From assembly GCA_900547725.1 (NCBI GenBank), contig URHR01000001.1, forward strand, positions 19,894 to 83,893: 64,000 bases of DNA, read 5' to 3'. A model generated the notes under the pieces. The model did no database searches, was not told the origin of the DNA, and worked only from the letters and a program-made list of their open reading frames with translations. This DNA is from an uncultured Eubacteriales bacterium (GTDB taxonomy: Bacteria > Bacillota > Clostridia > Oscillospirales > CAG-272). A program made the translations under genes and the position numbers. The stretch's first letter is position 1. The number at the start of each line of letters is the position of its first letter. Shown here in pieces: positions 2,590 to 41,874 of the stretch.

Positions 2590-3510
2590 TTAAGAGTTGA
2601 TTTTGAACCGCAGAACCGTTGGGCAGTGGTCGCTGACCGACAGCAACCGCTCCTCGGCAACAATGCGGTATTCTTCCGCCCGAACGCGGGCGGTGGGATC
2701 GAAAAGGAACGCATGGTCAATTGCATAGGGGTAATGGAGCGCGGGCATTTCGTCTCTCTCCTGCTTCTCCCCTTTTCCCGAGGACGGGTGACAGGATGCG
2801 CGGTTGTCGCGCTCCGCCGCAAGGTCGTGCGTATCGCGAAACCCCAGTTCCGTCAGCCGTTTCGCGCCGCCTGCCGCAATGCCGGAATTGAAATCTCCGC
2901 AGAGCAGAACCGGGCAGGCATACGTTTCTGACAGGGCTGTCAGCTTTGCATGGATGAACTCCGCCTCTTCGGGCTGACACCACGTGCGCAGGCTGAGATG
3001 CGTGTTCGCAACCAACAGTCTGCCGCCATAGCCGCAGGGACTTCCGTTCAGCAGAACCCATGAGAGACTGCGAAACCGCGAACCGGGCTTTGCCGCCTCC
3101 GGGGCTTCCTCGGGGTATGCGTAGCGCGGGGATTCGTTGCAGGCATGGGCGGGATAGGTTTCGCGGCAGTCGTTTTTGGTGTCCACCACCGAAAAACCGT
3201 TTGCCGTGAAGTCCCACCTTCCCGCCGCTTCCTCCCGCCATCGGTCGGGGCGGTACAGAATCGGATTCCAACTCCCGCCCGGCAGCTCGCCGCTCCCCTT
3301 TGCCTCGGTATACGCTTTCCCGAGCGCGGGCAGAAACGCGGTGTCATGCCGATAGTAGTAGTCGAACTCCTGCAGGCAGATGAGATCGGGCGCGCGATCC
3401 GCGAGCCACGCGGCGGCGCGGAGTGCACGTTCCGCAGCGGTCCGATAGACCGCCGTTCCCGGCATCCACGCGTTGAGCAGATTCCAGGATACGCAAAGGG
3501 ATTCGGTCAT
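2590..3510 (-). CDS. Endonuclease/exonuclease/phosphatase (EEP) family protein, no signal peptide
   Basis: EEP motifs are present: SWNLLNAW, LICLQEFD, LCGDFNS, SDHCPTVLRF. The start is chosen at MTESL because its ATG overlaps the stop of the upstream micro-ORF (ATGA). Confidence 0.85.
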   Translation of the reverse strand: MTESLCVSWNLLNAWMPGTAVYRTAAERALRAAAWLADRAPDLICLQEFDYYYRHDTAFLPALGKAYTEAKGSGELPGGSWNPILYRPDRWREEAAGRWDFTANGFSVVDTKNDCRETYPAHACNESPRYAYPEEAPEAAKPGSRFRSLSWVLLNGSPCGYGGRLLVANTHLSLRTWCQPEEAEFIHAKLTALSETYACPVLLCGDFNSGIAAGGAKRLTELGFRDTHDLAAERDNRASCHPSSGKGEKQERDEMPALHYPYAIDHAFLFDPTARVRAEEYRIVAEERLLSVSDHCPTVLRFKINS

Positions 3511-3635
3511 CCGAGTTTCCATGCCGCCTCGCAGTCAAGCGCGTCGCCCTGCGAAAGCGTCAGCGATCCGGTCAGAATATCCTGCGCGGACAGCTCGACG
3601 GATGCCATCATGGGGGTTGTGTACAGCTTTTTCAT
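3507..3635 (-). CDS. Micro-ORF P1 (42 aa), member of the QDILT peptide family
   Basis: Sequence is MKKLYTTPMMASVELSAQDILTGSLTLSQGDALDCEAAWKLG. RBS AAAGGAGAGG lies 5 nt upstream. The stop overlaps the next ATG. Two paralogs sit at 31639..31758 and 41722..41874. Confidence 0.6.
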   Translation of the reverse strand: MKKLYTTPMMASVELSAQDILTGSLTLSQGDALDCEAAWKLG

Positions 3636-3667
3636 AACTACCTCTCCTTTCTTATTTTTCGGGTTCA

Positions 3668-5419: not shown

Positions 5420-5440
5420 AGACGATAAACAGCCCTGCCG

Positions 5441-6931
5441 TTAATAACCGAAGCGCGAGTTGATGTTGTCAATCACTCTCTGCATATTCTCAGCTTTTCC
5501 GTTCAGCGCCGAGTACCAGTCGTCGGACGTGTTGTTGTAAAGCCGCTTGCGGAAGAGCGCGACGGGAGAATCCTCCCAGTCGAATTCGTTGGCAAAAATC
5601 CGCCCCATGTCATAGGTCTTGGAAGAGACGATCAGGTCGAACATCTTTGCGTTGATCGGGTCGTCCTGTCCGCGATACTTCAGAAGATCGTAAACCTTCG
5701 GCTGAACCGTGCGGTAGCCGCCCGAGGCAAGCGCCTCCATGACATACGCCGCGCGCTCGGTATTCTCGCAGTAGGTCGTCATCGACCACATGGTGTACGG
5801 GAAGCCCGAGGTGGAGTAGTACTCCTTCTGTTCGGTGTCCGCCTTCGGGAACGGAAGATAGCCGTAGCGGTCGTTCATCTTCTCGCGGTTCTTCATCAGA
5901 ACCAGAAAACTCGTCCCCGCCAGAACCGCACGCCCTTCGGTGAAGATATCAAAGCTGTAGGAGGTCGGATAGTAGTAATCGTCGCTCTTGAAGCAGGCGA
6001 TCAGGTCGCGCGAAAGATCGTAGATCGCACTTCCGCGGAATTCGGGCGCGATAATCAGCTTGCCTTCGTCATCGGTAGAGAGATACTTCAGACCGTTCGA
6101 CGCCAGAAACGCGTCGCCCACAACGGAATCCATTCCGATGTAACCGAAGGTATCGCCCGGATCTTTGCCCGAGACCTCGCTGTTCGTGTCCAGATAGGCG
6201 TTCCGAGAGATCTTATAGAACTCCTCCATGGTCCACAGCCCCTCCTGCGCCAGTTCGCGCGGGTCGGTCAGCGTGTCGTCCGCGTCGATCTTCGCCATAT
6301 TGACGCTCATGACAAAGGTCTGCAGAATGCCCGCCGCAGAGATGGAACCCGAGGCAAAATAAAGCTTATCGTTGATGGTCGCGCCCTTCAGAAGCGACGC
6401 CGACCACCAAGGCTTGGAGAAATCGAGAATGTTCCCGTATTCGTTCAGGTCGCGCAGGAAGCCGTCCGCCGAGAAGTTCGCCGCGCACTGGCTGTAGCAG
6501 GCGATCAGATCCACGGTCGTTCCCGACCGCAGTGCGTTCTCCACATTGGTAACATACTCGGTTCTGTCCGCGTTTCCGCCGTTGTAGTTCAGGTTGAACT
6601 CCAGAACCACCTTCAGGCGCTCCTGAACCAGCTCGTTGCGCGAAAAGGTCTGCTCGGCAATCTCGTCCCCCTTCGCGTAGTCCGTGTTGAAATCGTAGGA
6701 AGCTTCGCTGTTGCTCCACCCCATTACGCGCACGGTCTCGTTTCCGTAGTTCAGCCCTGCGGGAATCGAATCCCGGATGTACCCGTTTTCGTCATACGGA
6801 TTTTCGGTTGTCCCGGCGTCGGTTGTCGGTCCGTCGGTTTTTCCCGGATTCGGCGGTGCGGTCTTGCTGCCACACCCGAACAGGATTGCGGCAACCAGAA
6901 TCAGACAAAGAAGCAATGCAATTTTTTTCAT
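5441..6931 (-). CDS. Large lipoprotein solute-binding protein (ABC family-1 / LplA-like)
   Basis: ATG at 6931 with a GGGAGG RBS; the track start at 6937 is TTG. Lipobox MKKIALLLCLILVAAILFGC. Blocks FSRNELVQERL, YSQCAANF and FSKPWW are shared with the SBPs at 33974, 41910 and 54117. Confidence 0.85.
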   Translation of the reverse strand: MKKIALLLCLILVAAILFGCGSKTAPPNPGKTDGPTTDAGTTENPYDENGYIRDSIPAGLNYGNETVRVMGWSNSEASYDFNTDYAKGDEIAEQTFSRNELVQERLKVVLEFNLNYNGGNADRTEYVTNVENALRSGTTVDLIACYSQCAANFSADGFLRDLNEYGNILDFSKPWWSASLLKGATINDKLYFASGSISAAGILQTFVMSVNMAKIDADDTLTDPRELAQEGLWTMEEFYKISRNAYLDTNSEVSGKDPGDTFGYIGMDSVVGDAFLASNGLKYLSTDDEGKLIIAPEFRGSAIYDLSRDLIACFKSDDYYYPTSYSFDIFTEGRAVLAGTSFLVLMKNREKMNDRYGYLPFPKADTEQKEYYSTSGFPYTMWSMTTYCENTERAAYVMEALASGGYRTVQPKVYDLLKYRGQDDPINAKMFDLIVSSKTYDMGRIFANEFDWEDSPVALFRKRLYNNTSDDWYSALNGKAENMQRVIDNINSRFGY

Positions 6932-6962
6932 AAGCAACCTCCCGTTTAAGTATTACAGCCTC

Positions 6963-7027: not shown

Positions 7028-7137
7028 ATTTTCCGCCTTCAAAAGCCTGCTTTTCCTCCACAAAAAAATATTACACAAAACCGGCAGGGTTAAATCGTGC
7101 AAAATTACCAAATCGTTTTTTCCTTTCGGTCAAGCCC

Positions 7138-10956: not shown

Positions 10957-13218
10957 TTATTTTACCCTGATGCTACCGCCAACAACCTTGTTTACGTCAT
11001 ATGTAATGCCTGTTACGTCAATCTCAATACGAATCTTTCCGTCGGAAGGAATTACGCAACCGCTTTGAGAGGTTATGTTATAAGTGCCGTCTCCGTTCGG
11101 ATCAACGACTCCGACTCTGACGATTTTGGCTTCAAACAGTTTTGTTCCTGTGCTGTCGGAAACGATAACCGTTTGTCCTACTTGGAAAGACCCTGCTCTG
11201 ACAGTGGTCCACATTGACAATTTTTTGTTATTCGCGGCATCAATTGATTCGGATTTTCCCGTTATCTGCTTTGAAATCCCCTTTTCCGACGGAGCAACAG
11301 TGATTTCCACTTTTGTCTGACCTGCGCTCTTGACAATCTTGTAGTTGCTTAAATTAGCGTTCGACGTCGAAGTAAGTCTGAAACAATCAAGATTACTTTG
11401 TACCGATACTTGTTTCTTTTGGTCGAGTTTCACATAGTTGGGGTTCGTATCGCTGAGTTCCAATCCGGCTTTTCCGTTTACAAGCCTTAATGTAATCGTC
11501 TCCCCTGCGACAGGTGTGTACGTAGCAAGATACAACAGATCTCCGTTTTGCAAAATGGCACTGGTTGTGACATAGCCCTTTTCCAATTTGATTTCAACTT
11601 GTGAAATTTTGAAAGTTTTGATTTCGGAAACCACAGCCGCCCATTCGTCCGTTGCCGTGACGCCGATGCGGTATTCATATTCGGCAGCGTTCTTGGGAAT
11701 ATATTTGTCTGTAACTTTTGTCCACAATACTTCGCCTTTTCTACGGAACTCTACATATTTTTCGCCGGAGTCCAAAGCCGACGTGAAATTCTCTACGCCG
11801 TCATGTGTAGGTGCGCCAAATTTGATAAGAAGGTTATTAAATGTGAAGTTCGCAACAGGTTTGCCGTCGTACGTTTTACCCGTAAAGCTCTTAACGGTAA
11901 GCGTTCTTGGTTTCGCCTTTACGGTGAAGGATACGTACTCGGTGGCTCCGAAATTGTAGTTTACACCGTCATCGTATTGAATACGCACGCGGTATGTACC
12001 CGTTTTCTCGTTCCTTACTTCCTCTTTTGTAAGGGTACGACTCCAAACGCCTCCTTCAAGTTGTTTTTCCCAGACGATCGTCTTTGCGCCGTAACCATCA
12101 CCGATTTCAACGTAACCGGTTGTGGGATCGGGGATATTCGTTGCGCCGACAAAGAACTCGGTAAATGCGCTCGCATTGCTGATTTCAAAGTTGATGTCCG
12201 CTTTGATGATTGCCGCAGTGATGTCTGCTCTTGCAAGACTGTAATTGCCCGCGTCTTTCCCGGTGAGTTCAAAGCTTTGGACTGCCGCGCCGACGTTTTT
12301 GCTTGTCATCGTGATTGTTGCGGTAACCGTTTCGCCGTCAAGAACACCCGTAAGGGTTGCGGGCATGGTTGCGTTGCCGTCATACTCTTTGGTTGCCGCC
12401 CCGGTAAGCTCTTTCTTTGCGATTGCAAAGTCGAAAGTTTTTGACGCGGCTTTCCACTCTGCCGTGGCTTCTGCGCTGACTTTCACGGTATATTCGCCGA
12501 CATTCGTCGGAGCGGTTGCGGTATACGTATTGTCATCCGCGCCTTTTACCTTGAACATAAGTGCAGGTTCGCGATTGCCTTCAATTGCGAAATCGGCTTT
12601 CGTAATCGCAATCATCTGTCTGTCATAAGTCTTACCGAGCGTTTTTCCGTCTGCAAGCTTGATTTCATTGTCTTTTGCACCAAGTGCGTCGATGGTCACT
12701 TTCTTTTCGTAACCGCATTTCGTGCAGGTGAAAGTCTTTTCGCCGACTACGCCGTAGCCTTCCGGTTTGGTAACCACGCCTTCGTCAAAGGTATGCGCGG
12801 CGAAATCTTTGGTTTTGTCCGCGTGTCCGCAGGTTGTCGGGCGATAGTGTCCGCTTTCTTCGGTGTTCACCCATGCGTTCATATCATATTTGTGGGTGTG
12901 CGGAAGGACTTCGATCTTTTTGGTATAGCTGTATCCGCAGGTTTTGCACGTAAAGGTTCTGACGCCTTCCGTTTCCTCGGTGGGTTCGGTTGTAACTACC
13001 CCATCGTTGAACTCGTGCGGGAGTTTCTCCGTTGTGTCGGTGTGTTTCTTCGCGGTGCACGCGTGCCAGTGACAGGCTTCGTCCGTTGACCATTCGGTGG
13101 AAAACTCATGTTTCGGCGTAAGTGCGATCGGCAGTACGATGGCGCATGTCACGCCCGCCCCCAGGACGCACGCGAGGACGATTGCCAATACCTTGTGTGA
13201 TAAAATCCAGCTTTTCAT
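10957..13218 (-). CDS. N-terminally membrane-anchored surface protein with Cys/His-rich modules and MBG/YDG-type repeats
   Basis: N-terminal TM segment VLAIVLACVLGAGVTCAIVLPIAL. Modules HEFNDGVVT..TFTCKTCGYSY and HTFDEGVVT..TFTCTKCGYEK. Repeat KEYDGNATMPATLTGVLDGETVTA. RBS AAAGGGG. Confidence 0.8.
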   Translation of the reverse strand: MKSWILSHKVLAIVLACVLGAGVTCAIVLPIALTPKHEFSTEWSTDEACHWHACTAKKHTDTTEKLPHEFNDGVVTTEPTEETEGVRTFTCKTCGYSYTKKIEVLPHTHKYDMNAWVNTEESGHYRPTTCGHADKTKDFAAHTFDEGVVTKPEGYGVVGEKTFTCTKCGYEKKVTIDALGAKDNEIKLADGKTLGKTYDRQMIAITKADFAIEGNREPALMFKVKGADDNTYTATAPTNVGEYTVKVSAEATAEWKAASKTFDFAIAKKELTGAATKEYDGNATMPATLTGVLDGETVTATITMTSKNVGAAVQSFELTGKDAGNYSLARADITAAIIKADINFEISNASAFTEFFVGATNIPDPTTGYVEIGDGYGAKTIVWEKQLEGGVWSRTLTKEEVRNEKTGTYRVRIQYDDGVNYNFGATEYVSFTVKAKPRTLTVKSFTGKTYDGKPVANFTFNNLLIKFGAPTHDGVENFTSALDSGEKYVEFRRKGEVLWTKVTDKYIPKNAAEYEYRIGVTATDEWAAVVSEIKTFKISQVEIKLEKGYVTTSAILQNGDLLYLATYTPVAGETITLRLVNGKAGLELSDTNPNYVKLDQKKQVSVQSNLDCFRLTSTSNANLSNYKIVKSAGQTKVEITVAPSEKGISKQITGKSESIDAANNKKLSMWTTVRAGSFQVGQTVIVSDSTGTKLFEAKIVRVGVVDPNGDGTYNITSQSGCVIPSDGKIRIEIDVTGITYDVNKVVGGSIRVK

Positions 13219-13350
13219 AAATACCCCTTTCGTGTTATCGGTTTGTTTCGGTTCTGAAGCGGGTAAAACAACCGGCTTCCATTCTCATTGTGTTATGGAA
13301 AAACAGTTTTTTCGCCGTTCGCGGGCGGTTGATTTGCTGCCCGCGAACGC

Positions 13351-16300
13351 TCAGTTGCCCGGGTTTTCTACAAACTTTGCGTACACATACATTCTTTCGT
13401 GAACGGTAAAGGTACAGGTTGCGTCCGCCGATATGAGTTCTTCGCTCTGATCGTTAACGGATTGATACCAGCCGACGAAAGTAAATCCTTCGTTCGCCTC
13501 GGCGCGGAGCGTTATCTGCGCGCCCGCTTCAACCGCTCTGCCGTTGCCGAACTCGACCTTTTGCCCGTTTTCGGTAATGCGCCCTCCGTTATAAGGCGCT
13601 ACGTAAGCGTTGAAAAGATGCATTTCTTTCTCTGCAAATTTTGCGAAAACGTACAGATCGCGGTTTACCGTAAAGGTATAAGTCGCGTTCTCGGATATCA
13701 GCGTTTCGGCTTGCTGCTCGTTATAGAAATACCAGCCGAGGAAGTGATACCCTTCGTTTGCGACGGCGGTAAGAGTCACCCGCGCTCCCTTTTCAACCAT
13801 TCTGCCGTTGCCGAATTCGACCTTTTGACCGTTTTCGGTGATATAACCCCAGTTATACTCGTAACACTGCGCAAGGAAGCTGACCTGTTCCACGATTCTG
13901 ATCGTGATTACCACCTTGAACGCGGGGTTGGCAAGATAGGTGTAAGTAACGGTGTAAGAGCCGACCTTGCTCGTATCGAGCATATTGTTTGCGCTGACGC
14001 CGATCGTGCTTTCCACACGGTATTCCAGACCGCGGCAAAGTCTCTCGTATTTGTCACCGACTTTTCCGAGTACATTGACGTGTTCAAAATCAACCCAGAT
14101 TTCGCTGTTCAGATTGAATACGTATTCTTCTTTCGGGTTGCCGTTTCCGTCGGTTTCAAAGCCGAAATCGTTCAGGTCATGGAGCTTAATCCCGGTAACG
14201 ATGCCTCTGAACAAAGCGGTCAGATTCACATTGCCGGTTTCTTCGCTTACGGTAAAGGTGTATTTCAGGTCGGTCGAGAGCAACGAGTCCGCATTGTAGC
14301 CTTCGCTGTCGGAAGAGTAAAACCAGCCTATAAAGCGGTAGCCCGCGTTGGGTTTCACTTCGACGGTAACGCTTGCCTTATCGGGCAGGTCGTCGATATA
14401 CAGGTGTCCTTCGTCGGAAACGCCCGCGCTTGTGAATACGCCCGCGTCAGGACTCTCGATTATCGCATTGACGGAGAACGAATAGTCGAATCTTGCATAA
14501 ACGGTAGCGTCTTCGGTTACGGTGAACTCGTAAACGTCTTTGTCGGAAATAAGCGCGGCGGTTTCGCCTTCGCCGTCGTACCAGCCGACGAATTTAAAGT
14601 AAACGGTTTCTCCGCTTGCCGAAACTCTGACCTTTGACCCCTCGGTAACCACAAATTGCAGTTGCTTTTCGGCGGGAGAATACCCCTCCGAATTATTGTC
14701 GTAAAGGTTTCCGTGTTCGCCCGCGATAACGGTTAAGGTAACGCGTTCCTTTTCGGCAAACTTCGCGAAAAGATAGGTGTTATCGGTTATCGTAAAGGTT
14801 TCGGTCGCGTTCGACGAATAGAAGCGTTGTTCTTCTTCGAAAGAGTTGGTTATATACCAGCCGGCAAACTTGTACCCTTCGTTGGGTACAGCCGTCAGCG
14901 TGAGCGTTCCGCCGAGGTCGACTTCTTCCCGGTATCCGTCGGGATCTCTTACCACGACCTGACCGTCTTTCTGTATCACGCCTTGCGTGCCATCCCGATC
15001 CAGCAGATACGAATACGTTTCGGCTTTGGGGACGTTTACCTTGAGCGTGGCACGGACGGTCTTGTCATACTTGTAAGTAATTACAATTTCATGATCGCCC
15101 GTCTTTGTGTAGTCGACTTTGCTTGCGTCGACCGTGTATTCGGACGCGTCAAGAACGTTGCCGTTGTTCGTCGTTACGGTAAGCCCCCTAAGGTCGGCTT
15201 GCTTTTTGGTCGACAGGTTGTAATGGAAGAATCCGGATTCAAACCCTTCGCAGGTTACGTCAAGCGTCTCGACCGCCTCCACGAACAGGGCTTTGATATG
15301 CACGTCTGCGCCGTTCTGCCGGAATACGTATTCGGCTTCGGTCGAAACGGGTTCTTCGGAAAGGTTGCCCTCTTCGTCTACCAGATACCAGCCGACGAAC
15401 CTGTATCCTTCGGCGGGCTTTGCCAGTAACTCTCTTCTGCCGCCGAGCGCGAAATAATTTAAAACAAGGGGATCGTTACTCGTTTTCATTTCGGAAAACG
15501 CATTGCTTTTCTCCGTGACAGAGCCTTTGCCTGCGAATTCGACGGTAAGATGCGCGAACTGTTCGGAAACGTACACGTAGAAAGCGTTGTACACTTCATC
15601 TTTCATCGCTTTGTTGATCCTGCTGAAATGTACCGTGTATTTCATGTAGTAGACGCCTTCCTTATTGAAATCCAGTCCGCCGTAATCGATCGAATAATCG
15701 CCGAAGAACAATCGTACGTGTTCGTACACGTTGCCGTCGGTCGGGTTGTCTTTACGGCGAAGACCTCTTTCGTCCAGCTTCAGGAAGTCGGTTTCGGGCG
15801 TGCCGGGTTTGTAATACAATACGTTTTGCGCTTCAAGCGGCATCTCGCCCTCTCTGTATACCCGAGGCAGTCCCGACTCGCCCACCCAGTGTATCAACTG
15901 ATAAACGTCGGTTTTGAGATTGGATTTTTCGGGTTTGATTTTGAACATCGCGATGATGTTCAGATCAAAGTCGCTCATGCCGATTTCGTAAGTCGCATTT
16001 TTGGAGATAAGATCGCCGAGAACGCCGCCGGCGTACCATGTGTACCAACCGTCGAATTCGAAATCGCGATCGGGTACGGCGGTAAGGCTGTACTTCTGAT
16101 CTTTATCGGTGAAGATCAGCTGTTTTTCGGTGTAGGCGTCATATTTTTCTTCTATATAGAAGTTGCCGCCTTTTCCGGCTTTCACCGTAATGTCGCTGTT
16201 CTTCTCGGAAACATAAACGGTTATAACAAGGGTGAGTTCTTTTTCGTCGCTGACTCTGACCTTATATTCCACGCGATACTCGCCCTCTTTGGAATAATCG

Positions 16301-17325: not shown

Positions 17326-17474
17326 GGTTTTCTCCCTTTCTTTTTGTTCTTTCAGACTGCGGTTGGAAATTGCGATTCTGAAAATTGTGCCCGGGTATTT
17401 GAGCTTTTCCGCGTTGCAAAAGGATTCTTTTCCCCCCCTGCCGTTGTGTACCGAAAATCTGCTTACCGGCGTTT

Positions 17475-20627: not shown

Positions 20628-20675
20628 AGAATGCTCCTTCTCCGGTTGTATTTTGCTTGTTGTTGCAAATGGCAC

Positions 20676-20704
20676 TTGACTTTCGCGCGCGTGTGTGATA
20701 TACT
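20676..20704 (+). promoter_or_regulatory. Candidate promoter of the SBP-LuxR pair
   Basis: TTGACT (20676-20681), a 17-nt spacer, then TATACT (20699-20704). The spacer contains the alternating tract CGCGCGCGTGTGTG. Confidence 0.5.
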
Positions 20705-20880
20705 GTAAATGCACGCGGTGTTTCTGTGCCCGCAACGTTTGAAGCATCATCAGTATAGCATAAACGCAATGAAAATTCCCCCACCCAAACCTTAAAAAGG
20801 TTGGGAAAACCAAAAAAAAATAAATTTTTTTTAAAAATTCGGTGGGCAAACGCTCATACAACCGGTAACGGAGGATCGAT

Positions 20881-29700: not shown

Positions 29701-31509
29701 CTACCGATTGGCAAATACAAAATCAATAAAGATGGGGAAATGATCCGAAGCAGAGAGCGTACACTCATCGGCTATACAACCGTACACACGCACATCTGCC
29801 TCTCCTGTCGCTAAAAAGATATTGTCAAAGCTAAGTTGCCCTTGGTTATCATAACCGATGCCTCCAGCCGGCAACATCATACCATGGACCCGATCAAATC
29901 TCGGATAATCATGTGTCGATTTTGTAGTGGATACAAAATCGGTCGCAAGATCTCTTGTATGCCGGTATCCCGCTGTATTGACAATATAAGAATAGGTAGC
30001 GCTGGAGTGATTGAAGTTAAAATCTCCAATTAAGAATACCGGAACTCCCGAATACCTCTGCGATAGACTTTGAATCAGCGCCTCAATCTCCTGAACCTGT
30101 CCCAGCCCGACGACAGCATTTCCGCCTTCGAGATGAGTATTGACCACGATATAGTTTTTACCGTTGGCTTTATTCCGCAATACAGCCCAACTCAAAACCC
30201 GTGTTTCGCCTTTTGGTAATTGTTGATTCTCATAAATGTGATAATCGCTTTCCAGTACCTCTGTGGTGGCAGTGTGATAGAGGATGGGGCAAACATTATA
30301 TTTCCGGTATACCTCAGGCATCTCAGGATTCATGCTCTCCCGATATCCCAATGCTTCCAAAAGTGTGATAATGTTATTTTCGTTTGTAAGACGATTGTTA
30401 AAATCACATTCCTGCAATCCCAATACATCCGGCATATACTGCTTAATCATCTCACTCTGTAACCGGTTTCGCGCTGCAATATCCGGATGCCCCCAAAGTA
30501 CATTGTAGGACATTATGCGCACGTCACCTGCCGGCAAATAGGCATACTTGGTGGATTGAGTAAGTTTTGTAAGATGATCCTTATAATTGCCTTTAACGGA
30601 AAATCCATCTCGGAACGGGTAATAACCGTTTGGTGCCGCAGTTTCGAGGTATCGAAAAATCCCTTCAAATCCATAATAAGTGGAAGCAGCAAGCGTAATG
30701 CTTTTTTCAGACACTGTAATCTCAAAATCTCCCTGCGGCAATGCTTCGCTTTCCTCAATCACAATTTGTATCCCATCACCTGTCGGTGCGGAAGTGGTAG
30801 TTACCAAAGACTTTCCCGAAAGTGTCTTGATCGCCTCGCTTACACGATACGCATATCGAGCTGGCATCTGCGCCGCGCTATCATACACCACGCAGTAATC
30901 CGAAGCCGGATAATCAAAAAATGGGAACAAAGAAAATTGGATTCTCTGTACGGCCAAATAATTACGTGGTATCAACAATTCCGCCAATACCGGTGTTGTC
31001 GGCAGTTCTCCTTCCGGCTCTGCACCAAATACATCCTGCACAAACTGCGAAATTGCCAAATATAAACCGCTTTGTGTTTCGGAGTTAAAAAGCAATTTGT
31101 CCCCTACAACTGAAACGGAATATCCTTGTGCGTAGTCTACATCGCTTTTCTCTGTCTGTTCCGGACGATTCGTTATCCCCAACAAAATCTCCTTTTCGGC
31201 TCTCTCACCGCCACCCATATCCGAGGTTTCGGAATCCTTCCTCACCTGCAATTTGGCACCGGTATATGCTTCTACCGTTCCGGCCAACCGTTCTGCCATT
31301 GCCCGCACATATGTTTTGGGGTGCTCCGGAATCACAATTACATAGTCAGTTTTGTGATTTTTAACTACCTGCAAATTTTCTGTTTTCATCGGTCCTGTTG
31401 TGTCTGACAGACCGCCGGAATTTTGCGCATTTTTTCCATTACAACCAAACAGTAAAGCAATCACAAGTAATATCCCCCATGATGCAAACCTTTTTGATCG
31501 ACATTTCAT
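29701..31509 (-). CDS. Lipoprotein with an N-terminal alpha/beta module and an EEP-fold hydrolase domain
   Basis: Lipobox GILLVIALLFGC. N-module motif EILLGITNRPEQ. EEP motifs RIMSYNVLWGHP, VLGLQECDFNNR, LIGDFNF, SASDHFPIFIDF. Confidence 0.85.
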   Translation of the reverse strand: MKCRSKRFASWGILLVIALLFGCNGKNAQNSGGLSDTTGPMKTENLQVVKNHKTDYVIVIPEHPKTYVRAMAERLAGTVEAYTGAKLQVRKDSETSDMGGGERAEKEILLGITNRPEQTEKSDVDYAQGYSVSVVGDKLLFNSETQSGLYLAISQFVQDVFGAEPEGELPTTPVLAELLIPRNYLAVQRIQFSLFPFFDYPASDYCVVYDSAAQMPARYAYRVSEAIKTLSGKSLVTTTSAPTGDGIQIVIEESEALPQGDFEITVSEKSITLAASTYYGFEGIFRYLETAAPNGYYPFRDGFSVKGNYKDHLTKLTQSTKYAYLPAGDVRIMSYNVLWGHPDIAARNRLQSEMIKQYMPDVLGLQECDFNNRLTNENNIITLLEALGYRESMNPEMPEVYRKYNVCPILYHTATTEVLESDYHIYENQQLPKGETRVLSWAVLRNKANGKNYIVVNTHLEGGNAVVGLGQVQEIEALIQSLSQRYSGVPVFLIGDFNFNHSSATYSYIVNTAGYRHTRDLATDFVSTTKSTHDYPRFDRVHGMMLPAGGIGYDNQGQLSFDNIFLATGEADVRVYGCIADECTLSASDHFPIFIDFVFANR

Positions 31510-31638
31510 ATTCTAAACCTCTATCACAAAATCAAAATTCCAATTATAGGGTATCCCGAACAATTGTTATTCGGAATACCCCTTTTTGTATCAATCTATT
31601 GAACCAACATCATCGGCAGGCTATTCTTTAGCCGCACT

Positions 31639-31758
31639 TTAAGGATTGCCCCATTCCTTTTTATCTTCGCCATAAGGCTGGGAAATGGATACAGATTCGG
31701 TCAAAATATCTTGCGGCAGAGGCATAAAAAGCGCCTCGGGTCTTTGATAACTTTTCAC
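31639..31758 (-). CDS. Micro-ORF P3 (39 aa, GTG start), member of the QDILT peptide family
   Basis: Not in the ORF track. My translation is (M)KSYQRPEALFMPLPQDILTESVSISQPYGEDKKEWGNP. RBS AAGGAGGAA lies 8 nt upstream and abuts the TAA stop of the GLUG gene. Confidence 0.55.
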   Translation of the reverse strand: MKSYQRPEALFMPLPQDILTESVSISQPYGEDKKEWGNP

Positions 31759-31771: not shown

Positions 31772-33499
31772 TTATTCCTTGTATGCGTCTGCAAACGCCT
31801 TTATTTTGGCAAGCGAACTATTACTGTAAGGACTGTAATTTCCTTCTTTTTCCACATAGTAGGGATAGTCCTCAGATTGTGCATCTGCGCGATCGGCATA
31901 AGCTTCCCGTGCAACAGATGCAATGGTACGGGAGTGATCCTGTTCGATATAATCCGAATAAAAAGTAACGGATAAATCTCCAACAGTAATCGTCAGGTAT
32001 CCGACCGCACTGTATGCCAAGTTGTAGTTGGACTCAAACAGGTTAGCTACCGCACCGGAAAAGGTGTATGCAGTGTCGGTCTCCTCTAAAAATTTATAAA
32101 CGGTTGTGTCGAACGGTACGTTAATGTAAGGATCAAAAGCAAACCCTTGCTCTTTCTTGTATGTATCCAAGGCATCAGCGGTGAAAGTACCAACAGCCTT
32201 TACATATTTGGTTGGCGCGATGAGGGTGCCGATTTGCACGGTAACGTTGTCTGCTTTAAGCAGCGCATCTAACGTAGATTTTTTGATTTCAGTATCAAAA
32301 CGCAGACCTGTGGGATCGTCCAGCCGTACAGAAGCACCGGTCAGAGTTTTGAGAGTAATGTCGGTTACACAACCGGATGCACTCAAATTCCCCTTCCCCT
32401 TGTTTCCGGCCAAATTATGACCGCTAGCATAGCAGTTTTTCAGGTTTAACTGCTTCGCCTCATTCATACCAACCAGTTCACCCATAAAACCGGGGTCGGT
32501 TCCTTTACCGGACAGCATCTTGCCGGCATTAAAGCAATTCTCTATATTATAAACTGCCTTACTTCTGGCATCGCCAATGATACCGCCGGTGCGGCCATGT
32601 CCACGATTGGTCTCCACAAAGATATCCCCATAGTTCACACAGTTGCTGATAGATACCGTTGTATCTGTAGCCGCATCACCAACGGCTACGATACCACCAG
32701 AATACGCGATGGTAGCAGATCCGGTAAAGATTTGCGAAATATCTGCATAATTTGTGCAATTGGTTATCTGGGCTGCCTCGATTCTGGCCGCAATTCCGGC
32801 TGTATATTGCCGCTCTTTATTGGTGCCAGAAGTCGTTACCTGAAGTTGAATCTTTCCGTGTGCCGTACAATCCTGAATTTTACCTCCGGCGGCCAACATG
32901 CCGGTAATTCCGCCAAAGTAAAAATCAACTGATTTTGCTTCACGGGTAATTTGCACATCAGCATACACGGTGCAATTTTCAACAGCAGAACCGCCATAAA
33001 CAGATGCGCACAGTAAGCCGCTATAATTATTCTTTCTTGATCCGGCGCGTATATGACCGTGCACTGTGAGATTCTTTACTACAGCACCTCCATCCAACCT
33101 ACCAAAGAGTCCCGGTCTGTAATCCCGTTCCTCATTGATTGCAAAACCGGTTATGACTTTACCGTTTCCGTCAAATTTCCCCTTAAACGCTTTTCCTGCA
33201 TCATTCTGATTACCGATCCCTGTCCATTCCCGACCGCCAAGATCAATATCCGCAGTCAGAATATAATATTGATTATACGTAGCACTTCCATTTGAATTTA
33301 CAAGAGAGGCCAAATAAGCCAATTCTGAACCGTTTGAAATCTTCCACGGGTCATCATCAGTACCGGATCCACCGGAAAAAGATGCAGCAACGCTACCATC
33401 CCACGCAGCAGTGTCTGCTGCGATCGCCGGAAATTCCAGTAAAAAAGTCGAGAGCAACATGGCAAAAATGATGAAACATGATAAAACTTTGGTCTTCAT
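31772..33499 (-). CDS. Secreted GLUG-motif / beta-helix repeat protein
   Basis: Signal peptide MKTKVLSCFIIFAMLLSTFLLEFPAIA. N-terminal region DPWKISNGSELAYLA..ADIDLGG..FDGNGKVI..GLFG. Repeated GGI(T/V/I)G blocks. RBS GAGGAGG. Confidence 0.8.
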   Translation of the reverse strand: MKTKVLSCFIIFAMLLSTFLLEFPAIAADTAAWDGSVAASFSGGSGTDDDPWKISNGSELAYLASLVNSNGSATYNQYYILTADIDLGGREWTGIGNQNDAGKAFKGKFDGNGKVITGFAINEERDYRPGLFGRLDGGAVVKNLTVHGHIRAGSRKNNYSGLLCASVYGGSAVENCTVYADVQITREAKSVDFYFGGITGMLAAGGKIQDCTAHGKIQLQVTTSGTNKERQYTAGIAARIEAAQITNCTNYADISQIFTGSATIAYSGGIVAVGDAATDTTVSISNCVNYGDIFVETNRGHGRTGGIIGDARSKAVYNIENCFNAGKMLSGKGTDPGFMGELVGMNEAKQLNLKNCYASGHNLAGNKGKGNLSASGCVTDITLKTLTGASVRLDDPTGLRFDTEIKKSTLDALLKADNVTVQIGTLIAPTKYVKAVGTFTADALDTYKKEQGFAFDPYINVPFDTTVYKFLEETDTAYTFSGAVANLFESNYNLAYSAVGYLTITVGDLSVTFYSDYIEQDHSRTIASVAREAYADRADAQSEDYPYYVEKEGNYSPYSNSSLAKIKAFADAYKE

Positions 33500-33973: not shown

Positions 33974-35506
33974 TTATCTGGCTTCTTCCGAAGCCTTCCA
34001 CAATTCTTGGAAAGTCTGGTTCAGTTTAATTACTTCCTCAACGATCAAATCCCGTTTGCCCTTCAGAAGTGAACTGATCGTATTGGTACCGGAAGCATAC
34101 ATATCTCTCAGCTGTGTCGTACCGAACGCCTTAAAAGCAGTTCCAATATAGATATTAGCAGGATCAAAGAAGGTTGATGATTCCATAATCTCCAACATTC
34201 GTACGGATTCGGGATCCTTGGCATATCGCGTGGTCAGAGCTCTTTCGTAGTAAGCCGATTTTACAGTTTGATAACTCTCAGAAGCATAAGCCTCCAAGAA
34301 CTGGCTGGATTCCACCCGTTTGGCTCCCCCCACCGTGCGCGGGATAGCATACAGCAAGCATTGATCCTGAATATAGGAATAGTATTCATCCTGTGTCTCG
34401 GAATCAGATTTTGGCAGCGGTAAAATGCCATAGCCCTGTTTGGTTTCACCCAGATTCTTCATACCCGTTTCCTCCAGGAAGAAAAGCCGGAAGCTGGTCA
34501 AAGCTGCGGTACCTGCTGTAAATTTTCCGACCACATCAAAATAGGTAGAGCTGGTATATGATCCATCGCCATACATCATTCCCAAAATCTTATCTATTGC
34601 ATTAGAAAAATTGGCGGTAGAACTCAAATCATTGACATAAAGATTCTCCCCATCCTTTCCAACCACACGCAGACCGGCAGAGGCCATATAGCCATCCGTG
34701 AGGGAAGACCCCGATCCTACCCACATCACATAACCGAATTGATCATCAACATTCACGCCATTACCATCGAGATCGTTGTAAAAATTCGCTGACAGTTCAG
34801 CCACCTCATGAAAATCCCAATCTCCGTTCAGAACCGTTTGATAGGGATATTCCACACCAACATCGGTAAACAAATTTTTATTAAAAAACATTCCTATCAT
34901 GTACCGATAATAAGACAGCGAGAACTGACCGGTAAGAAGATACTGTGCATTTCCCACAGAGAGCGCATCATTGTAACCTTGAGAATAGTAATCCTTCTCT
35001 GTGTTGATAAAAGGCAAATCCAACAGATTGGCAAAATGCCCCAGCTGAGCCATCCCACACATACGATATCCGGCGGTAGTCATAATATTATAGGTATCAA
35101 AACCGCCATTGATCAGATTGGTAATTTCGTCAGTAATAAAATTGCTGTTTGTATCACCGACCCGTTCGTACACTTCAATTCTACAATTCAACCGATCTTC
35201 CAAATTAAGATTTCGTTTGAACATAGCATCTTGTACTACATTTACCTCAGACTCCTCCTGCAGCATTTCCCGCACCGTTTCACTCTGCACGTAGGAAAAA
35301 AGTCGGATAGTATGTTGCTCAAAATCCAAGTCATCCGGAAGATCGTCTACATCGTTGCGAATTTCTTCTGTTTGATCTTCTCCCCCAGTTGTCGTGGCAG
35401 TTTCTGTACTCTTCGGTTTTTCGGTCTTTGTTCCGCACGAAGCCAACGGAACAAGAAGCAGTAGAATGGCACAAAAAAGCGCCAATCTTTTTTTCAATAC
35501 GTCCAT
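33974..35506 (-). CDS. Large lipoprotein solute-binding protein (LplA-like)
   Basis: ATG at 35506; the track start is TTG. Lipobox LLLLVPLASC. Block MFKRNLNLEDRL is shared with the other large SBPs. Confidence 0.85.
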   Translation of the reverse strand: MDVLKKRLALFCAILLLLVPLASCGTKTEKPKSTETATTTGGEDQTEEIRNDVDDLPDDLDFEQHTIRLFSYVQSETVREMLQEESEVNVVQDAMFKRNLNLEDRLNCRIEVYERVGDTNSNFITDEITNLINGGFDTYNIMTTAGYRMCGMAQLGHFANLLDLPFINTEKDYYSQGYNDALSVGNAQYLLTGQFSLSYYRYMIGMFFNKNLFTDVGVEYPYQTVLNGDWDFHEVAELSANFYNDLDGNGVNVDDQFGYVMWVGSGSSLTDGYMASAGLRVVGKDGENLYVNDLSSTANFSNAIDKILGMMYGDGSYTSSTYFDVVGKFTAGTAALTSFRLFFLEETGMKNLGETKQGYGILPLPKSDSETQDEYYSYIQDQCLLYAIPRTVGGAKRVESSQFLEAYASESYQTVKSAYYERALTTRYAKDPESVRMLEIMESSTFFDPANIYIGTAFKAFGTTQLRDMYASGTNTISSLLKGKRDLIVEEVIKLNQTFQELWKASEEAR

Positions 35507-35549
35507 TTCCAATTAACTCCTCTCTTTCTTCCGATTTATCGGTACTTAT

Positions 35550-37546: not shown

Positions 37547-37559
37547 AACATGGTATAAT
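37530..37559 (+). promoter_or_regulatory. Candidate promoter with an extended -10
   Basis: TTGTTT, an 18-nt spacer, then TGGTATAAT (37551-37559), upstream of the AraC gene at 37603. Confidence 0.45.
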
Positions 37560-37602
37560 CATATAAAAAATCAGAAAAAAAGACGAAGGGTGCGCCGCTG
37601 TT

Positions 37603-38376: not shown

Positions 38377-38381
38377 ACAGC

Positions 38382-38411
38382 AAAAAAGCCCCCGCGTCGG
38401 GGGGCTTTTTT
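38382..38411. terminator. Bidirectional rho-independent terminator between convergent AraC genes
   Basis: AAAAAAGCCCCC, a short loop, then GGGGGCTTTTTT. Confidence 0.7.
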
Positions 38412-38455
38412 GCGTGCGGAAAGCGTTTGTTTTTCGCCGTGCGGCGGCGGTTGCG

Positions 38456-39274: not shown

Positions 39275-39462
39275 CTCATCCTCCGATTGGATAAAACCGT
39301 ATTTTTCTATATTGTAACACATCGGCGCCGATTTGTCAACCTGTTTTACGATATGCAAAAGGTTCTGGCGGATCAAAATCAAAATTACAGTCAAAATAAC
39401 ATAAAAAAAGCGTAAAAACGGGCGGATTCAGACAAGCGAACAAAAGCAAACGCTTTCGTTTT

Positions 39463-39508
39463 CGGACAAAACCGAATAAATCGCATGGTAAGACGGACAA
39501 ATAGGAAT
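39463..39508 (+). promoter_or_regulatory. Direct repeat CGGACAAAnnnGAAT x2, candidate operator
   Basis: CGGACAAAACCGAAT at 39463-39477 and CGGACAAATAGGAAT at 39494-39508, 12/15 identical with a 31-bp offset. The proximal copy touches the -35. Confidence 0.35.
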
Positions 39509-39536
39509 GTACAACCGACAGCGGATATGCTATAAT
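39508..39536 (+). promoter_or_regulatory. Candidate promoter of the GLUG / micro-ORF / SBP / MBL operon
   Basis: TGTACA, a 17-nt spacer, then TATAAT (39531-39536). Confidence 0.4.
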
Positions 39537-39586
39537 AAATGTACGGATGAACCCATCCGAAAAAACAGAAAAGAGAGGAAAGACCA

Positions 39587-41704
39587 ATGAAGAAATGTTT
39601 AGCGCTCCTGTTGTCTGTCTGCCTGATTCTCGGGCTTATGCCGTTGGCGGCAATTCCCGCTGTTGCGGAAACCGGGAATACGGAAGACTCCACCGAAAGC
39701 GGCACAGTCGAAGGAAAAGAGGTTGCGTCTCTCGTTGAGCTGACAACTGCTCTGGGGAACGGCTTCAAAAACCTGCGGCTGATGTCGGACATCGACCTCG
39801 GCGGAAAAACCGTTACCGAACCGATCGCGAATCTCGGCGACGGCGTAACGCTGGACGGAAACGGCAAGTCCATTGTGAATTTTTCCATGAATGCCAAGGG
39901 TGAAAACGACATCCACACCATGAGTCTGTTCGGCACGGCGGCGGGAAAAGTCACCGTAAAGAACCTGACAATCGGCGAACCCGACCACCCCATCGCTTAC
40001 ACCTACAAGGCGATCAAAGGCGGCGCGGGTGACGAGCATTACGCGGTCCTCTTTGCGGAAAGCACGGCAGGCTCCGATCTGACGGTTTCGGGCGTAACGG
40101 TTTACACCAACATGGCTCCCGTCAAGGATTGCCCCGACACCGCGATGGTTTCCGGCTTCGTTTCGGTTGTCGGCGGAACCGCAACCTTTGAAAACTGCAA
40201 CCTTTACGGCTCCGTGAAAAACAAGGAAGGTAAGGTTTACGGCGATACCCGCGCTTCCGGCTACATTGCCGAAGTCTCTGCGGGCGCAACCGTTACGATG
40301 AAGGCCTGCACGAACAACGCGGAAATCCGCGGCGGCTTCTACACGGGCGGCTTCATCGGAAAGGTCAAAGAAGGAACGGTATCCCTGACGGGATGCGCGA
40401 ACAAAGGCAATGTGTTCGGTGAGGCACAGGTCGGCGGCATGGTCGGCGTTACGGAGCCTGCGGCAGACAAAACCCTGAACCTGACTTTTGATAAGTGTCA
40501 GAACCTCGGAGTAATCACGGCCAACGATGCGGATTGCGGCGGTTTCCTCGGAAAAGCGGACCTGCAAAAAGGCAATCTGACCGGCTCTATAACCTTTACT
40601 TCCTGCGTCAATCGCGGTGAAGTGAAAGCCAACACCAGACTGGGCGGATTTGTCGGAAAATACGGAAAGAACGGAAGCGAGAGTTCCGCTAACGGGGCAG
40701 CGCTCAATGTTCCCCTGCATTTTGAAAAGTGCCTGAACGCAGCAAATGTAACCTCCAAAGGCTGGCACACCGGCGGATTCTTGGGCTATGCTTATATCTC
40801 CGAGGGCATGGAGTTCCGTTCCTGCGTAAACCTCGGAACGGTCAGCGGCGTTGGAAATGTCGGCGGCTTTTTCGGTTATCTCTTTGCGCATCTCGGCGGC
40901 AACAAAACCGCCAAAACCGCAGTGCTCATTGACTGCAGTGTAAATGCGGGAACGGTTACGGGTACCGAAAGTAATATCTGCGGCTTCGGAGGTCACTTCA
41001 CTTCGTGGAGCGAAATGATGATAAAAATGACCGACTCCTTCAACCTTGCGGATGTAAAAGCGGGAGAAGGAAAGTACACCGGACCGATCCTGATTTCCAA
41101 CAAGGATCTGGTTAACAAGACAGCATGGATTGCCGGATGCGGCACCTTCGGAGCAACAAATCTCGTTACGGAAAACGGCAAATATCAGCCCATCGCAGGC
41201 ACCAAGGTCTGCACAACTGCTCAAGAGGCACTGGATTATCTGAACGAAAAGACCAACAACCAGTCCACGCTGGGCGGACAGTTCCTGATTGTAGGCGAAA
41301 AACTCTCCTTTACCGAGGCTCCCGCACTTCTCGGCGTGCAGAAGTCCGGAACCGCAGACGGAAAATTCTCGGCTCGTTTCTCGGCAATTCTCAAGAATTA
41401 TGATCTGGAAGCCTACCAAGAAGTCGGCTTTGCCGTAACGCTTGGCGACAAAACGGTTGAAAAGTCCGGCACCAAGGTCTACAGCAACCTCTCGGAGGGC
41501 ACGGGAGCGCATCTTGCGTCCGAGTTCGGCGGCTCCTACTTCTTTACGCTCAACCTGACGGATATTCCCGCTACCGGTACGCAAACCGTTACCGTTCGGG
41601 TGTTCGCGGTCAACAGCAACGGCGTGAAGGTATATGAAAGCATCACCTACACCGCAACCTTTGCAAACGGAGAATGCGCAATTGCAGTTTCCGCAAATGC
41701 ATGA
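39587..41704 (+). CDS. Secreted GLUG-motif / beta-helix repeat protein
   Basis: Signal peptide MKKCLALLLSVCLILGLMPLAAIPAVA. N-terminal motifs SDIDLGG..LDGNGKSI..SLFG. Repeats YTGGFIGK, VGGMVG, CGGFLGK, LGGFVGK, HTGGFLGY, VGGFFGY. Confidence 0.8.
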   Translation: MKKCLALLLSVCLILGLMPLAAIPAVAETGNTEDSTESGTVEGKEVASLVELTTALGNGFKNLRLMSDIDLGGKTVTEPIANLGDGVTLDGNGKSIVNFSMNAKGENDIHTMSLFGTAAGKVTVKNLTIGEPDHPIAYTYKAIKGGAGDEHYAVLFAESTAGSDLTVSGVTVYTNMAPVKDCPDTAMVSGFVSVVGGTATFENCNLYGSVKNKEGKVYGDTRASGYIAEVSAGATVTMKACTNNAEIRGGFYTGGFIGKVKEGTVSLTGCANKGNVFGEAQVGGMVGVTEPAADKTLNLTFDKCQNLGVITANDADCGGFLGKADLQKGNLTGSITFTSCVNRGEVKANTRLGGFVGKYGKNGSESSANGAALNVPLHFEKCLNAANVTSKGWHTGGFLGYAYISEGMEFRSCVNLGTVSGVGNVGGFFGYLFAHLGGNKTAKTAVLIDCSVNAGTVTGTESNICGFGGHFTSWSEMMIKMTDSFNLADVKAGEGKYTGPILISNKDLVNKTAWIAGCGTFGATNLVTENGKYQPIAGTKVCTTAQEALDYLNEKTNNQSTLGGQFLIVGEKLSFTEAPALLGVQKSGTADGKFSARFSAILKNYDLEAYQEVGFAVTLGDKTVEKSGTKVYSNLSEGTGAHLASEFGGSYFFTLNLTDIPATGTQTVTVRVFAVNSNGVKVYESITYTATFANGECAIAVSANA

Positions 41705-41721
41705 CACAGAGGAGGATTACG

Positions 41722-41874
41722 ATGATGAAAACAAAAGCGTATTTTGCACCCGCTATGTCGGTTGTTGCGTTTGATTTTGAAGCACAGGATATTCTGACTC
41801 TGAGCCAAGGCTCTATGAAACAAGAACTGACGATGTCTTTCGATGAGCTGTTGAACAGCGGCAGCAACAACTGA
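41722..41874 (+). CDS. Micro-ORF P2 (50 aa), member of the QDILT peptide family
   Basis: Sequence is MMKTKAYFAPAMSVVAFDFEAQDILTLSQGSMKQELTMSFDELLNSGSNN. RBS GGAGGA lies 6 nt upstream. It starts 17 nt after the GLUG stop and ends 35 nt before the SBP gene. Confidence 0.6.
   Translation: MMKTKAYFAPAMSVVAFDFEAQDILTLSQGSMKQELTMSFDELLNSGSNN

Follow-up and report, generated by a model that had tools for sequence, protein, structure and literature searches.

Three micro-open reading frames (micro-ORFs), here called P1, P2 and P3, were analyzed in a 64-kb stretch of contig URHR01000001.1 from an uncultured Eubacteriales bacterium; the whole of this stretch is referred to as the window. P1-P3 are protein-coding, and their conserved N-terminal leader is under purifying selection. 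By sequence comparison they are members of a large, unnamed peptide family of gut Clostridia. Canonical members of this family sit, judging from predicted gene content, behind genes for GLUG-like secreted proteins in PqqD-centered operons that resemble those of peptides made by ribosomes and modified after translation (RiPPs). The window itself holds only the pairing of a secreted protein with a peptide. We lean, with modest confidence, toward a reading in which the N-terminal block is a leader recognized by a RiPP recognition element (RRE), T-x-S is the cleavage site, the tail is the product and the window copies are served in trans.

Three micro-ORFs conserved at the protein level

A preliminary description of the window had reported three ORFs sharing a QDILT block, and all three translate as it wrote them:

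3507..3635, minus strand: P1, 42 aa, ATG start; leader-like MKKLYTTPMMASVELSAQDILTGS followed by the tail LTLSQGDALDCEAAWKLG
31639..31758, minus strand: P3, 39 aa, GTG start; (M)KSYQRPEALFMPLPQDILTES followed by the tail VSISQPYGEDKKEWGNP
41722..41874, plus strand: P2, 50 aa; MMKTKAYFAPAMSVVAFDFEAQDILTLS followed by the tail QGSMKQELTMSFDELLNSGSNN

The starts given for P1 and P2 hold, but P3 initiates at GTG rather than ATG. The GGAG-type ribosome-binding site (RBS) that had been placed 5-8 nt upstream of each start is present as a Shine-Dalgarno sequence at all three: GGAGAGG 5 nt 5' of the ATG for P1, GGAGG 8 nt 5' of the GTG for P3 and AGGAGG 6 nt 5' of the ATG for P2. The QDILT codons differ synonymously among the copies (caggatattctgacc, caagatattttgacc and caggatattctgact) and the loci contrast in local GC content (~0.60 at P1, 0.44 at P3 and 0.53 at P2), both as described. 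The preceding stop codon lies 13 nt away for P3, 17 nt for P2 and 32 nt for P1. All three peptides are laid out as a leader of ~21-28 residues (M-K, Y-x-x-P-x-M/L, a hydrophobic strand and D-I-L-T-x-S) and a mostly acidic, freely evolving tail of ~17-22 residues; the first block reads YTTPMM ... T-G-S in P1, YFAPAM ... T-L-S in P2 and YQRPEA in P3.

A loose regular expression for the motif, run over six frames of the window, returned P1, P2 and P3 only. The 1673 window ORFs of at least 20 aa were also searched with a family hidden Markov model (HMM) built from 126 members from elsewhere, close relatives of P1-P3 being left out; the same three were recovered (P1 5.5e-10, P2 2.9e-8, P3 5.9e-4) and no others. 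Their occurrence is not a matter of chance.

Orthologues of P1-P3 were collected by a word-indexed profile search. They bear out the earlier proposal of selection on the peptide, since those of each ORF show amino acid substitutions with the frame kept and the leader has a ratio of nonsynonymous to synonymous substitution rates (dN/dS) of ~0.2. The exact P1 sequence is present on 698 public contigs and its variants retain YxxP and DILTxS; a metagenome scan with one relatives' alignment returned six P1 orthologues only. Orthologues were likewise obtained for P3 (P0008, P0013-18, L087-L090) and P2 (P0003-5, P0010, L091), together with a more distant set of the form MKKYEAPxLxVVRFSAQDILTFSNEFDLP...DEE. 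Against the L086 orthologue (78% identical), the 24 leader codons of P1 gave a dN/dS of 0.21, which is comparable to that of the adjoining genes of its cassette (0.19 for the Exo_endo_phos, or EEP, lipoprotein EEP583 and 0.11 for an SBP-like lipoprotein), while the P1 tail gave 0.56. The downstream EEP310 was excluded from this comparison, its alignment being partial and poor. P3 and its L087 orthologue differ by one synonymous and one nonsynonymous change in the leader and by no synonymous and five nonsynonymous changes in the tail. Between the same two loci, the GLUG-motif gene upstream of P3 (GLUG575, 31772-33499, against L087:2603-4333) has a dN/dS of ~0.94, compared with 0.37 and 0.15 for the adjoining EEP602 and EEP403, and the P3 tail shifts in step with this fast-evolving gene.

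Leader-core entropy, calculated over 20 codons in 66 distinct nucleotide versions from other genomes, was 0.41 bits at first codon positions, 0.32 at second and 1.26 at third. Because of this distribution and the leader dN/dS of ~0.2, selection is placed on the protein. Rfam, applied to the whole window at gathering thresholds, found no RNA family anywhere and none over the ORFs. Readthrough or frameshift fusion to the upstream protein was ruled out by the intervening gaps, which keep no constant frame, and by the RBS that each ORF has of its own.

A large, unnamed peptide family

When 1.84 billion representative proteins were searched exhaustively with an HMM, 334 clusters (formed at 50% identity) scored E<=1e-3, and nearly every one is 30-60 aa long. 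The preliminary description had spoken of a three-copy family; three copies are indeed what the window holds, but the family is not limited to them, and they form a branch of a very large one. Its consensus is MKxYxxPE(M/L)E(I/V)VxFxxED(I/V)(I/L)TxS followed by a hypervariable tail whose median length is 17 aa, in which D, G, E and P abound and whose net charge averages -3.1. The QDILT variants of the window fall within the family continuum, as the residue in front of D-I-L-T varies between E and Q in many members.

The peptides had earlier been left without a named family, and Pfam and NCBIfam gave no match to them at E<=10. "Hypothetical protein" is the sole name attached to family members in any source, and full-text literature searches on family motifs and associated gene terms yielded no relevant paper on the family. 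It thus appears to be undescribed in the databases and literature searched. Cultivable carriers include Roseburia, Ruminococcus flavefaciens and Clostridium isolates, among them Roseburia sp. AM59-24XD, R. flavefaciens Y1 and Clostridium sp. AM49-4BH.

Genomic context of the relatives

Context was sampled by scanning a tight alignment against one genome per GTDB species, which gave 69 loci from Roseburia, Lachnospiraceae, Ruminococcus (including R. flavefaciens isolates), Oscillospiraceae, Ruminiclostridium and others. Several of these loci carry two or three micro-ORFs. Tandem arrays in which the same leader is joined to different tails occur at L064:1323-1572, L065:1127-1446 and L026:9821-10126 and are like multi-precursor RiPP loci. 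Among the 60 micro-ORFs that have an upstream ORF, this ORF is on the same strand in 53 and within 100 nt in 42, with a median gap of 29 nt. For 34 of those 42 the upstream protein belongs to a single GLUG-like homologous cluster, whose members reach ~3000 aa and have signal peptides and the GLUG motif; the gap between the GLUG-like gene and the micro-ORF is usually 6-90 nt.

Roughly half of the 69 loci contain PqqD, nearly always in the order kinase-like, PqqD, peptidase-like, ABC, NTP_transf_5. The predicted products of the canonical operon are:

Gene 1: membrane-anchored protein with a long disordered region
Gene 2: HprK-like kinase of ~250 aa that carries a Walker A motif (TAKSGTGKST) and weakly matches ScmC, HprK-B and HPr-kinase models
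Gene 3: PqqD (PF05402, E 2e-11)
Gene 4: S24/S26-like peptidase of ~150 aa that carries GxSMxP, K and GDN boxes and weakly matches signal peptidase I (TIGR02228, E 2.5e-7)
Gene 5: ABC exporter of ~570 aa that has no peptidase domain
Gene 6: NTP_transf_5 nucleotidyltransferase (PF14907, E 3e-38)

The same enzyme set was seen in L009, a metagenome locus that was found independently. Several dyads of secreted-protein gene and micro-ORF can share one enzyme set (L039, L022). In a Pfam survey of 148 same-strand neighbors in PqqD-bearing loci, ABC was counted 15 times, NTP_transf_5 15 times and PqqD 14 times; Asn synthase and transglutaminase are absent among the 25 Pfam families listed for these neighbors. 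A second branch of the family (L037, L063, L065, L073, L075, L076) adjoins a 455-aa radical SAM/SPASM maturase that matches RiPP maturase models, including the PapB type. This branch usually has PqqD and kinase-like matches in the locus as well (L037, L063, L065, L073), and its tails often carry a Cys soon after T-x-S, as C-P-x-D/N. A short peptide with a conserved leader and a variable core beside an RRE, a peptidase, tailoring enzymes and an exporter is the signature of a RiPP precursor.

Two further sequence features of the canonical loci were observed. The disordered membrane-anchored proteins that follow canonical micro-ORFs are PT/ST-rich and end in ELPF[VI]P plus one or two residues in 13 of 13 cases (e.g. 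L030:10173-10658, L022:10229-10915); an LPxhP/G-type ending is also present in 58 of 287 family tails, e.g. ...GELPFVPAE and ...PELPFVPVSGK. Many of the canonical GLUG-like giants share a C-terminal helical segment, (S/P)MSY(A/C)Y(A/S)VL...LKN(V/L)VKALYxYxxAAxxY (L030:7863-9983, L039:2222-9988, L058:8365-9987). An HMM of this helical domain had no match in the window, and the domain is therefore not part of the window cassettes.

Orphan copies are common among canonical members even when 10-kb flanks are considered (L013, L016, L029, L042, L052, L058, L066). Some metagenome-assembled genomes hold both orphan and cluster-linked copies, namely EHIM01_bin.006 (L053 versus L057 and L063) and PUUB39_bin.033 (L048 versus L067). 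The tie to GLUG, EEP and SBP genes that had been suggested for the window recurs in independent relatives, which again follow genes for EEP, GLUG-like, GH20 or GDSL secreted proteins. Four of them have no enzyme set in their available flanks:

L094: follows a 258-aa EEP gene
L092: follows the gene of a 1797-aa GH20 protein
L003: follows the gene of a 1121-aa GDSL lipase
L001: follows the gene of a 989-aa secreted protein

L001 also encodes a stand-alone 88-aa PqqD (13214-13480, minus strand), the last gene of an OYE-AcnX operon. This PqqD is 30-37% identical to the cluster PqqDs and lies 3.1 kb from the QDILT-type micro-ORF, in a different operon. On the Hadza-gut contig that carries the P1 orthologue of L006, a second family member (MKKPYFSPQLQINTVQDHDVISTS..., L006:2612-2758) begins 13 nt after the gene of a 503-aa GLUG-like lipoprotein.

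The window cassettes

The features that surround the micro-ORFs, arranged by cassette, are:

P1 cassette
5441..6937, minus strand: SBP-like lipoprotein, 498 aa, at the head of the cassette; orthologue in L006
3668..5419, minus strand: EEP583, 583-aa lipoprotein directly upstream of P1, with a C-terminal Exo_endo_phos domain (PF03372) and a lipoprotein-type signal sequence
2590..3522, minus strand: EEP310, EEP protein of ~306-310 aa directly downstream of P1 (PF03372), with its start at the ATGA at 3509-3512 or at 3522

P3 cassette
33974..35512, minus strand: SBP-like lipoprotein, 512 aa, at the head of the cassette; orthologue in L087
31772..33499, minus strand: GLUG575, secreted GLUG-motif protein of 575 aa directly upstream of P3 (PF07581), with a signal peptide
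31548..31582, minus strand: terminator-like hairpin of 16 bp followed by a U-rich tract, ~60 nt past the P3 stop
29701..31509, minus strand: EEP602, lipoprotein of 602 aa downstream of P3, assigned by Pfam
28472-29683: EEP403, following EEP602
26085-28457: rhamnosidase, following EEP403

P2 cassette
39587..41704, plus strand: secreted protein of 705 aa directly upstream of P2, a GLUG575 paralogue with a signal sequence and no Pfam match
41910..43454, plus strand: SBP-like lipoprotein, 514 aa, downstream of P2; paralogue of the lipoproteins at 5441-6937 and 33974-35512

P1 is wedged between two EEP genes as had been described, both of its neighbors matching Exo_endo_phos in Pfam. P2 and P3 follow GLUG secreted-protein genes: that of P3 matches Pfam Glug, and that of P2, though it has no Pfam match, is homologous to it (26% identity over 352 aa, E 4e-15). 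A promoter-like site is present at 39508-39536, 5' of the 705-aa gene. Both proteins also share homology with the large GLUG-like proteins encoded ahead of canonical micro-ORFs. The proteins upstream of all three peptides (GLUG575, the 705-aa protein and EEP583) have a signal sequence, and P1-P3 show the family arrangement, in that each lies no more than 100 nt past the gene of a large signal-peptide protein on the same strand. This arrangement is kept in the orthologous loci L006-L008 and L087-L091. An EEP583 orthologue (82% identical) precedes the P1 orthologue in L006, and the gene order downstream of P3 is repeated in L087 and L088.

The window contains sets of paralogues for SBP-like lipoproteins (498, 512, 514 and 550 aa), EEP proteins (583, 602, 547, 403 and 310 aa), GLUG-like proteins (575 and 705 aa) and proteins of the metallo-beta-lactamase (MBL) fold (650 and 694 aa). 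In BLAST comparisons among window proteins, the SBP-like lipoproteins of the three cassettes are 24-25% identical (E 1e-9 to 1e-27). As the large genes of the cassettes are paralogous at only ~25% identity, the peptide gene has persisted through duplication or acquisition events that are old.

That P1-P3 are decaying relics of a lost or relocated biosynthetic operon, translated yet functionless, is therefore judged improbable: each of the three cassettes keeps a copy, which implies long retention, and start codon, RBS and open frame are kept in all three. The leader dN/dS of P1 near that of its neighbors, the abundance of the exact P1 sequence and the preservation of YxxP and DILTxS in its variants tell against decay as well. 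A relic would fit the lack of enzymes within the window, the fast tails of P3 and P1, and P3 itself, which is the most eroded of the three when scored with the family HMM.

The 3' sides of the micro-ORFs differ from copy to copy. The TGA of P1 overlaps the ATG of the next EEP gene (ATGA), in agreement with the coupling noted earlier, with an alternative in-frame ATG at 3522; the overlap is 4 nt in L006 and L008, and in L007 it is 16 nt, which corresponds to the alternative ATG. P2 is followed by a 35-nt gap, and P3 by the hairpin within a 129-nt gap. This hairpin folds at -37.2 kcal/mol (z = -4.08; none of 200 shuffles was as good) and is absent from the list of a simple terminator scan; with it placed after P3, GLUG575 and P3 look like one transcription unit. 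The P1 overlap, conserved in L006 and L008, and the strong hairpin after P3 would suit regulatory or coupling ORFs for which the act of translation matters and the peptide is irrelevant. We regard such a role as very unlikely, given the amino acid conservation with free third codon positions across hundreds of divergent members, a downstream layout that is different for each copy and a window without any Rfam element.

The remaining Pfam content of the window comprises AraC regulators, GH31 and Listeria-Bacteroides-repeat surface proteins, beside the SBP-like lipoproteins, the EEP and MBL-fold proteins, the rhamnosidase and one GLUG protein. A fourth paralogous cassette (47740-55769) has no micro-ORF by regular expression or HMM and includes:

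47740-49383: EEP547 lipoprotein
52020-54104: MBL694 lipoprotein
54117-55769: SBP-like protein of 550 aa

The segment at 10957-20978 encodes three very large proteins, secreted or on the surface, of 753, 1324 and 1167 aa; they have YDG/MBG, Listeria-Bacteroides repeat and Big_3 domains, and no micro-ORF follows any of them. The GC content of the window is a mosaic of ~0.56-0.60 (1-10 kb), 0.50 (10-22 kb), 0.42-0.46 (22-38 kb), 0.53-0.62 (38-58 kb) and 0.40-0.48 (58-64 kb); the cassettes thus differ in compositional history and were possibly acquired separately. Judged from N-terminal sequence alone, a large serine recombinase-like ORF lies at 58847-60490 and a split transposase-like ORF of insertion-sequence type at 62689-63524, and the low-GC right end (58847-63524) may be a mobile-element boundary.

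Proposed leader-bearing precursors and competing explanations

The reading that we favor combines the window peptides with what is seen at the canonical loci. A PqqD-type RRE would recognize and bind the leader, which would serve as a handle like that of lasso leaders (YxxPxL/M), and the S24/S26-like peptidase would cut at the invariant T-x-S as a small -3/-1 site; alternatively, the T may be the -2 residue, as in lasso leaders. The tail would then be the product, possibly phosphorylated or nucleotidylated, and the ABC transporter would carry it out of the cell. In the window, the copies would be orphan or satellite precursors, co-transcribed with the secreted GLUG or EEP gene just upstream and probably tied to its product in function, on which processing machinery encoded elsewhere in the genome would act in trans. 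Two observations on relatives speak for this: orphan copies coexist with cluster-linked ones in some metagenome-assembled genomes, and the stand-alone PqqD near the QDILT-type micro-ORF of L001 is of the cluster PqqD subfamily. Of the features by which RRE-dependent precursors are recognized, P1-P3 have the small size, the conserved leader at the N terminus and the variable C-terminal part. A PqqD gene was sought at E<=1 in every window ORF that reaches 50 aa and was not found in the locus, nor was a modifying enzyme, leader peptidase or exporter found within the window. As to kind, we infer an RRE-dependent, leader-guided peptide; for every named class, the window copies fall short on defining features that were tested.

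Several observations weigh against this reading. Every window ORF that reaches 50 aa was left without a match at E<=1 by HMMs for the kinase-like, PqqD, peptidase-like, NTP_transf_5, ABC, radical SAM and stalk proteins of canonical loci, and in agreement, Pfam found no PqqD, maturation, peptidase, exporter or radical SAM family among 37 larger window proteins. The enzyme set is also absent from the 10-kb flanks of most close relatives (L003, L006, L087). Processing of the window peptides in trans is pure conjecture, the search having covered the 64-kb window. P3 is the weakest of the three against the independent family HMM and has YxxPxA rather than YxxPxM/L, and the window tails do not have the motifs of many canonical tails (LPxhP/G; Cys beside T-x-S). 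The peptidase and kinase assignments rest on motifs and sub-threshold HMM scores, and profile searches of the PDB with the peptidase-like and kinase-like proteins gave marginal matches only (signal peptidase I at E ~0.1). Experimental detection of any peptide of the family was not found in the literature searched. Finally, the upstream secreted protein, and not the enzymes, is the most constant neighbor, so a role as an unmodified partner is equally compatible with the window data.

In such a role, P1-P3 would be unmodified small partners of the upstream secreted enzyme, and the binding partner of the conserved N-terminal block would be one common in the cell but outside RiPP biosynthesis; possible functions are those of a holdase or inhibitor inside the cell, of an adaptor for secretion or targeting, or of a ligand for docking. 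This is a tentative alternative, less probable than processing as a precursor. The dyad of a secreted-protein gene and a micro-ORF (6-90 nt apart) is the most constant feature of the family and persists without enzymes nearby, several dyads occur per enzyme set (L039, L022), and P3 appears to close a transcription unit with its GLUG gene. The ELPF[VI]P ending common to the 13 stalk proteins and many micro-ORF tails likewise suggests a short linear motif of the ligand type. However, the peptide's conserved part stays constant beside upstream proteins of varied kinds (GLUG-like, EEP, GDSL lipase, GH20, SBP-like), and the peptides have no signal peptide while the partner is exported. The recurrent PqqD, peptidase and ABC genes beside canonical members would also be left unexplained.

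A further proposal, which we consider unlikely, though less so than decay, is the family as the peptide component of an undescribed surface-protein system of gut Clostridia rather than an antibiotic-type RiPP. Each giant GLUG-like or EEP secreted protein would be paired with a leader-bearing micropeptide of its own, which the PqqD chaperone, S24/S26-like peptidase, kinase, nucleotidyltransferase and ABC exporter would process and export. The tail, with an ELPFVP-type motif that also ends the co-encoded membrane-anchored stalk protein, would dock, compete for or release the secreted protein at the cell surface, and the window copies would be minimal pairings inside glycan-utilization cassettes. 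The window tails do not have an ELPFVP-type motif, and docking or competition therefore remains speculative.

The closest likeness to a known system is to lasso peptides. In lasso leaders, contacts to the B1 RRE are made through three residues of YxxPxL (Y, P and L), and the protease reads a Thr near the leader end. Firmicute split-B systems of the paeninodin and pseudomycoidin type share with the family a leader of M-K, aromatic-x-x-P-x-hydrophobic, a short strand and a Thr near the cleavage site, and at canonical loci the accessory genes are alike as well (PqqD-family B1-like RRE, HPr-kinase-like, NTP_transf_5 and ABC exporter). The aromatic-x-x-P-x-h ... T layout is seen in firmicute lasso leaders such as MKKDWTIPTLEVLDINMTMA and MKAWNTPVIETLEINETAA (PMC7533575, rumen lasso-peptide survey). 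The canonical PqqD gives weak NF033530 and NF033536 matches. However, split-B systems have a cyclase and a transglutaminase-type B2, whereas neither is among the 25 Pfam families listed for neighbors at family loci, where the S24/S26-like peptidase is in the B2 position. Family tails mostly do not have the ring-forming D/E at positions 7-9, the peptide gene is preceded by that of a giant GLUG-like secreted protein, and the window copies are without any of the enzymes.

P1-P3 as lasso peptide precursors themselves would account for the YxxPxM-then-T layout, and after a cut behind T-x the cores would begin with Ser and place D8 in P1 and E8 in P2. P3, on the other hand, would have E10, and most family tails do not have a D/E at positions 7-9. 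With neither cyclase nor B2 among the conserved neighbors of the relatives, and no Asn-synthase-like cyclase or transglutaminase-type B2 in the window or among the relatives' listed neighbor families, the lasso reading was rejected as the least probable of those considered.

Ranthipeptide or SCIFF-type RiPPs resemble one branch of the family, that with the radical SAM/SPASM neighbor and the Cys after T-x-S. P1-P3 do not show the defining traits of ranthipeptide or sactipeptide precursors: there is no radical SAM match in the window, P2 and P3 have no Cys, and the single Cys of P1 is elsewhere, in a setting unlike that of the radical SAM branch.

Nif11/NHLP leaders and prochlorosins are dispersed precursors with a conserved leader and a hypervariable core that are served by one enzyme set. 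They have in common with the present family the conserved leader, the hypervariable core, the many copies, some of them distant from the enzymes, and likewise the use of one leader family with different enzyme sets. They differ in that their leader sequence is unrelated, trans-processing is presumed for the family described here, and the pairing with a secreted-protein gene has no counterpart among them.

The best NCBIfam matches of the canonical kinase-like and PqqD proteins are to SynChlorMet ScmC (TIGR04249), HprK-related kinase B (TIGR04355) and HPr-rel-A PqqD (TIGR04353). These matches are weak, with scores far under the curated cut-offs (24.5 bits vs 125, 19.6 vs 200 and 15.3 vs 35). Such computationally defined HprK/PqqD cassettes, themselves uncharacterized, would be distant relatives at most.

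Conclusions

If leader-bearing precursors are what the family encodes, common Clostridia of the human and ruminant gut would carry hundreds of unannotated peptide genes that are missed by gene callers and family databases, and the family HMM would rescue these genes in genome annotation. The peptides would represent a new leader family for RRE-dependent maturation, in which a lasso-like leader occurs without a cyclase and an S24/S26-type peptidase replaces the cysteine protease that is usual. That the peptides are paired almost obligatorily with giant GLUG-type surface proteins, and in the window with EEP, SBP and MBL glycan-utilization cassettes, would point to surface-enzyme biology rather than classical bacteriocin warfare.

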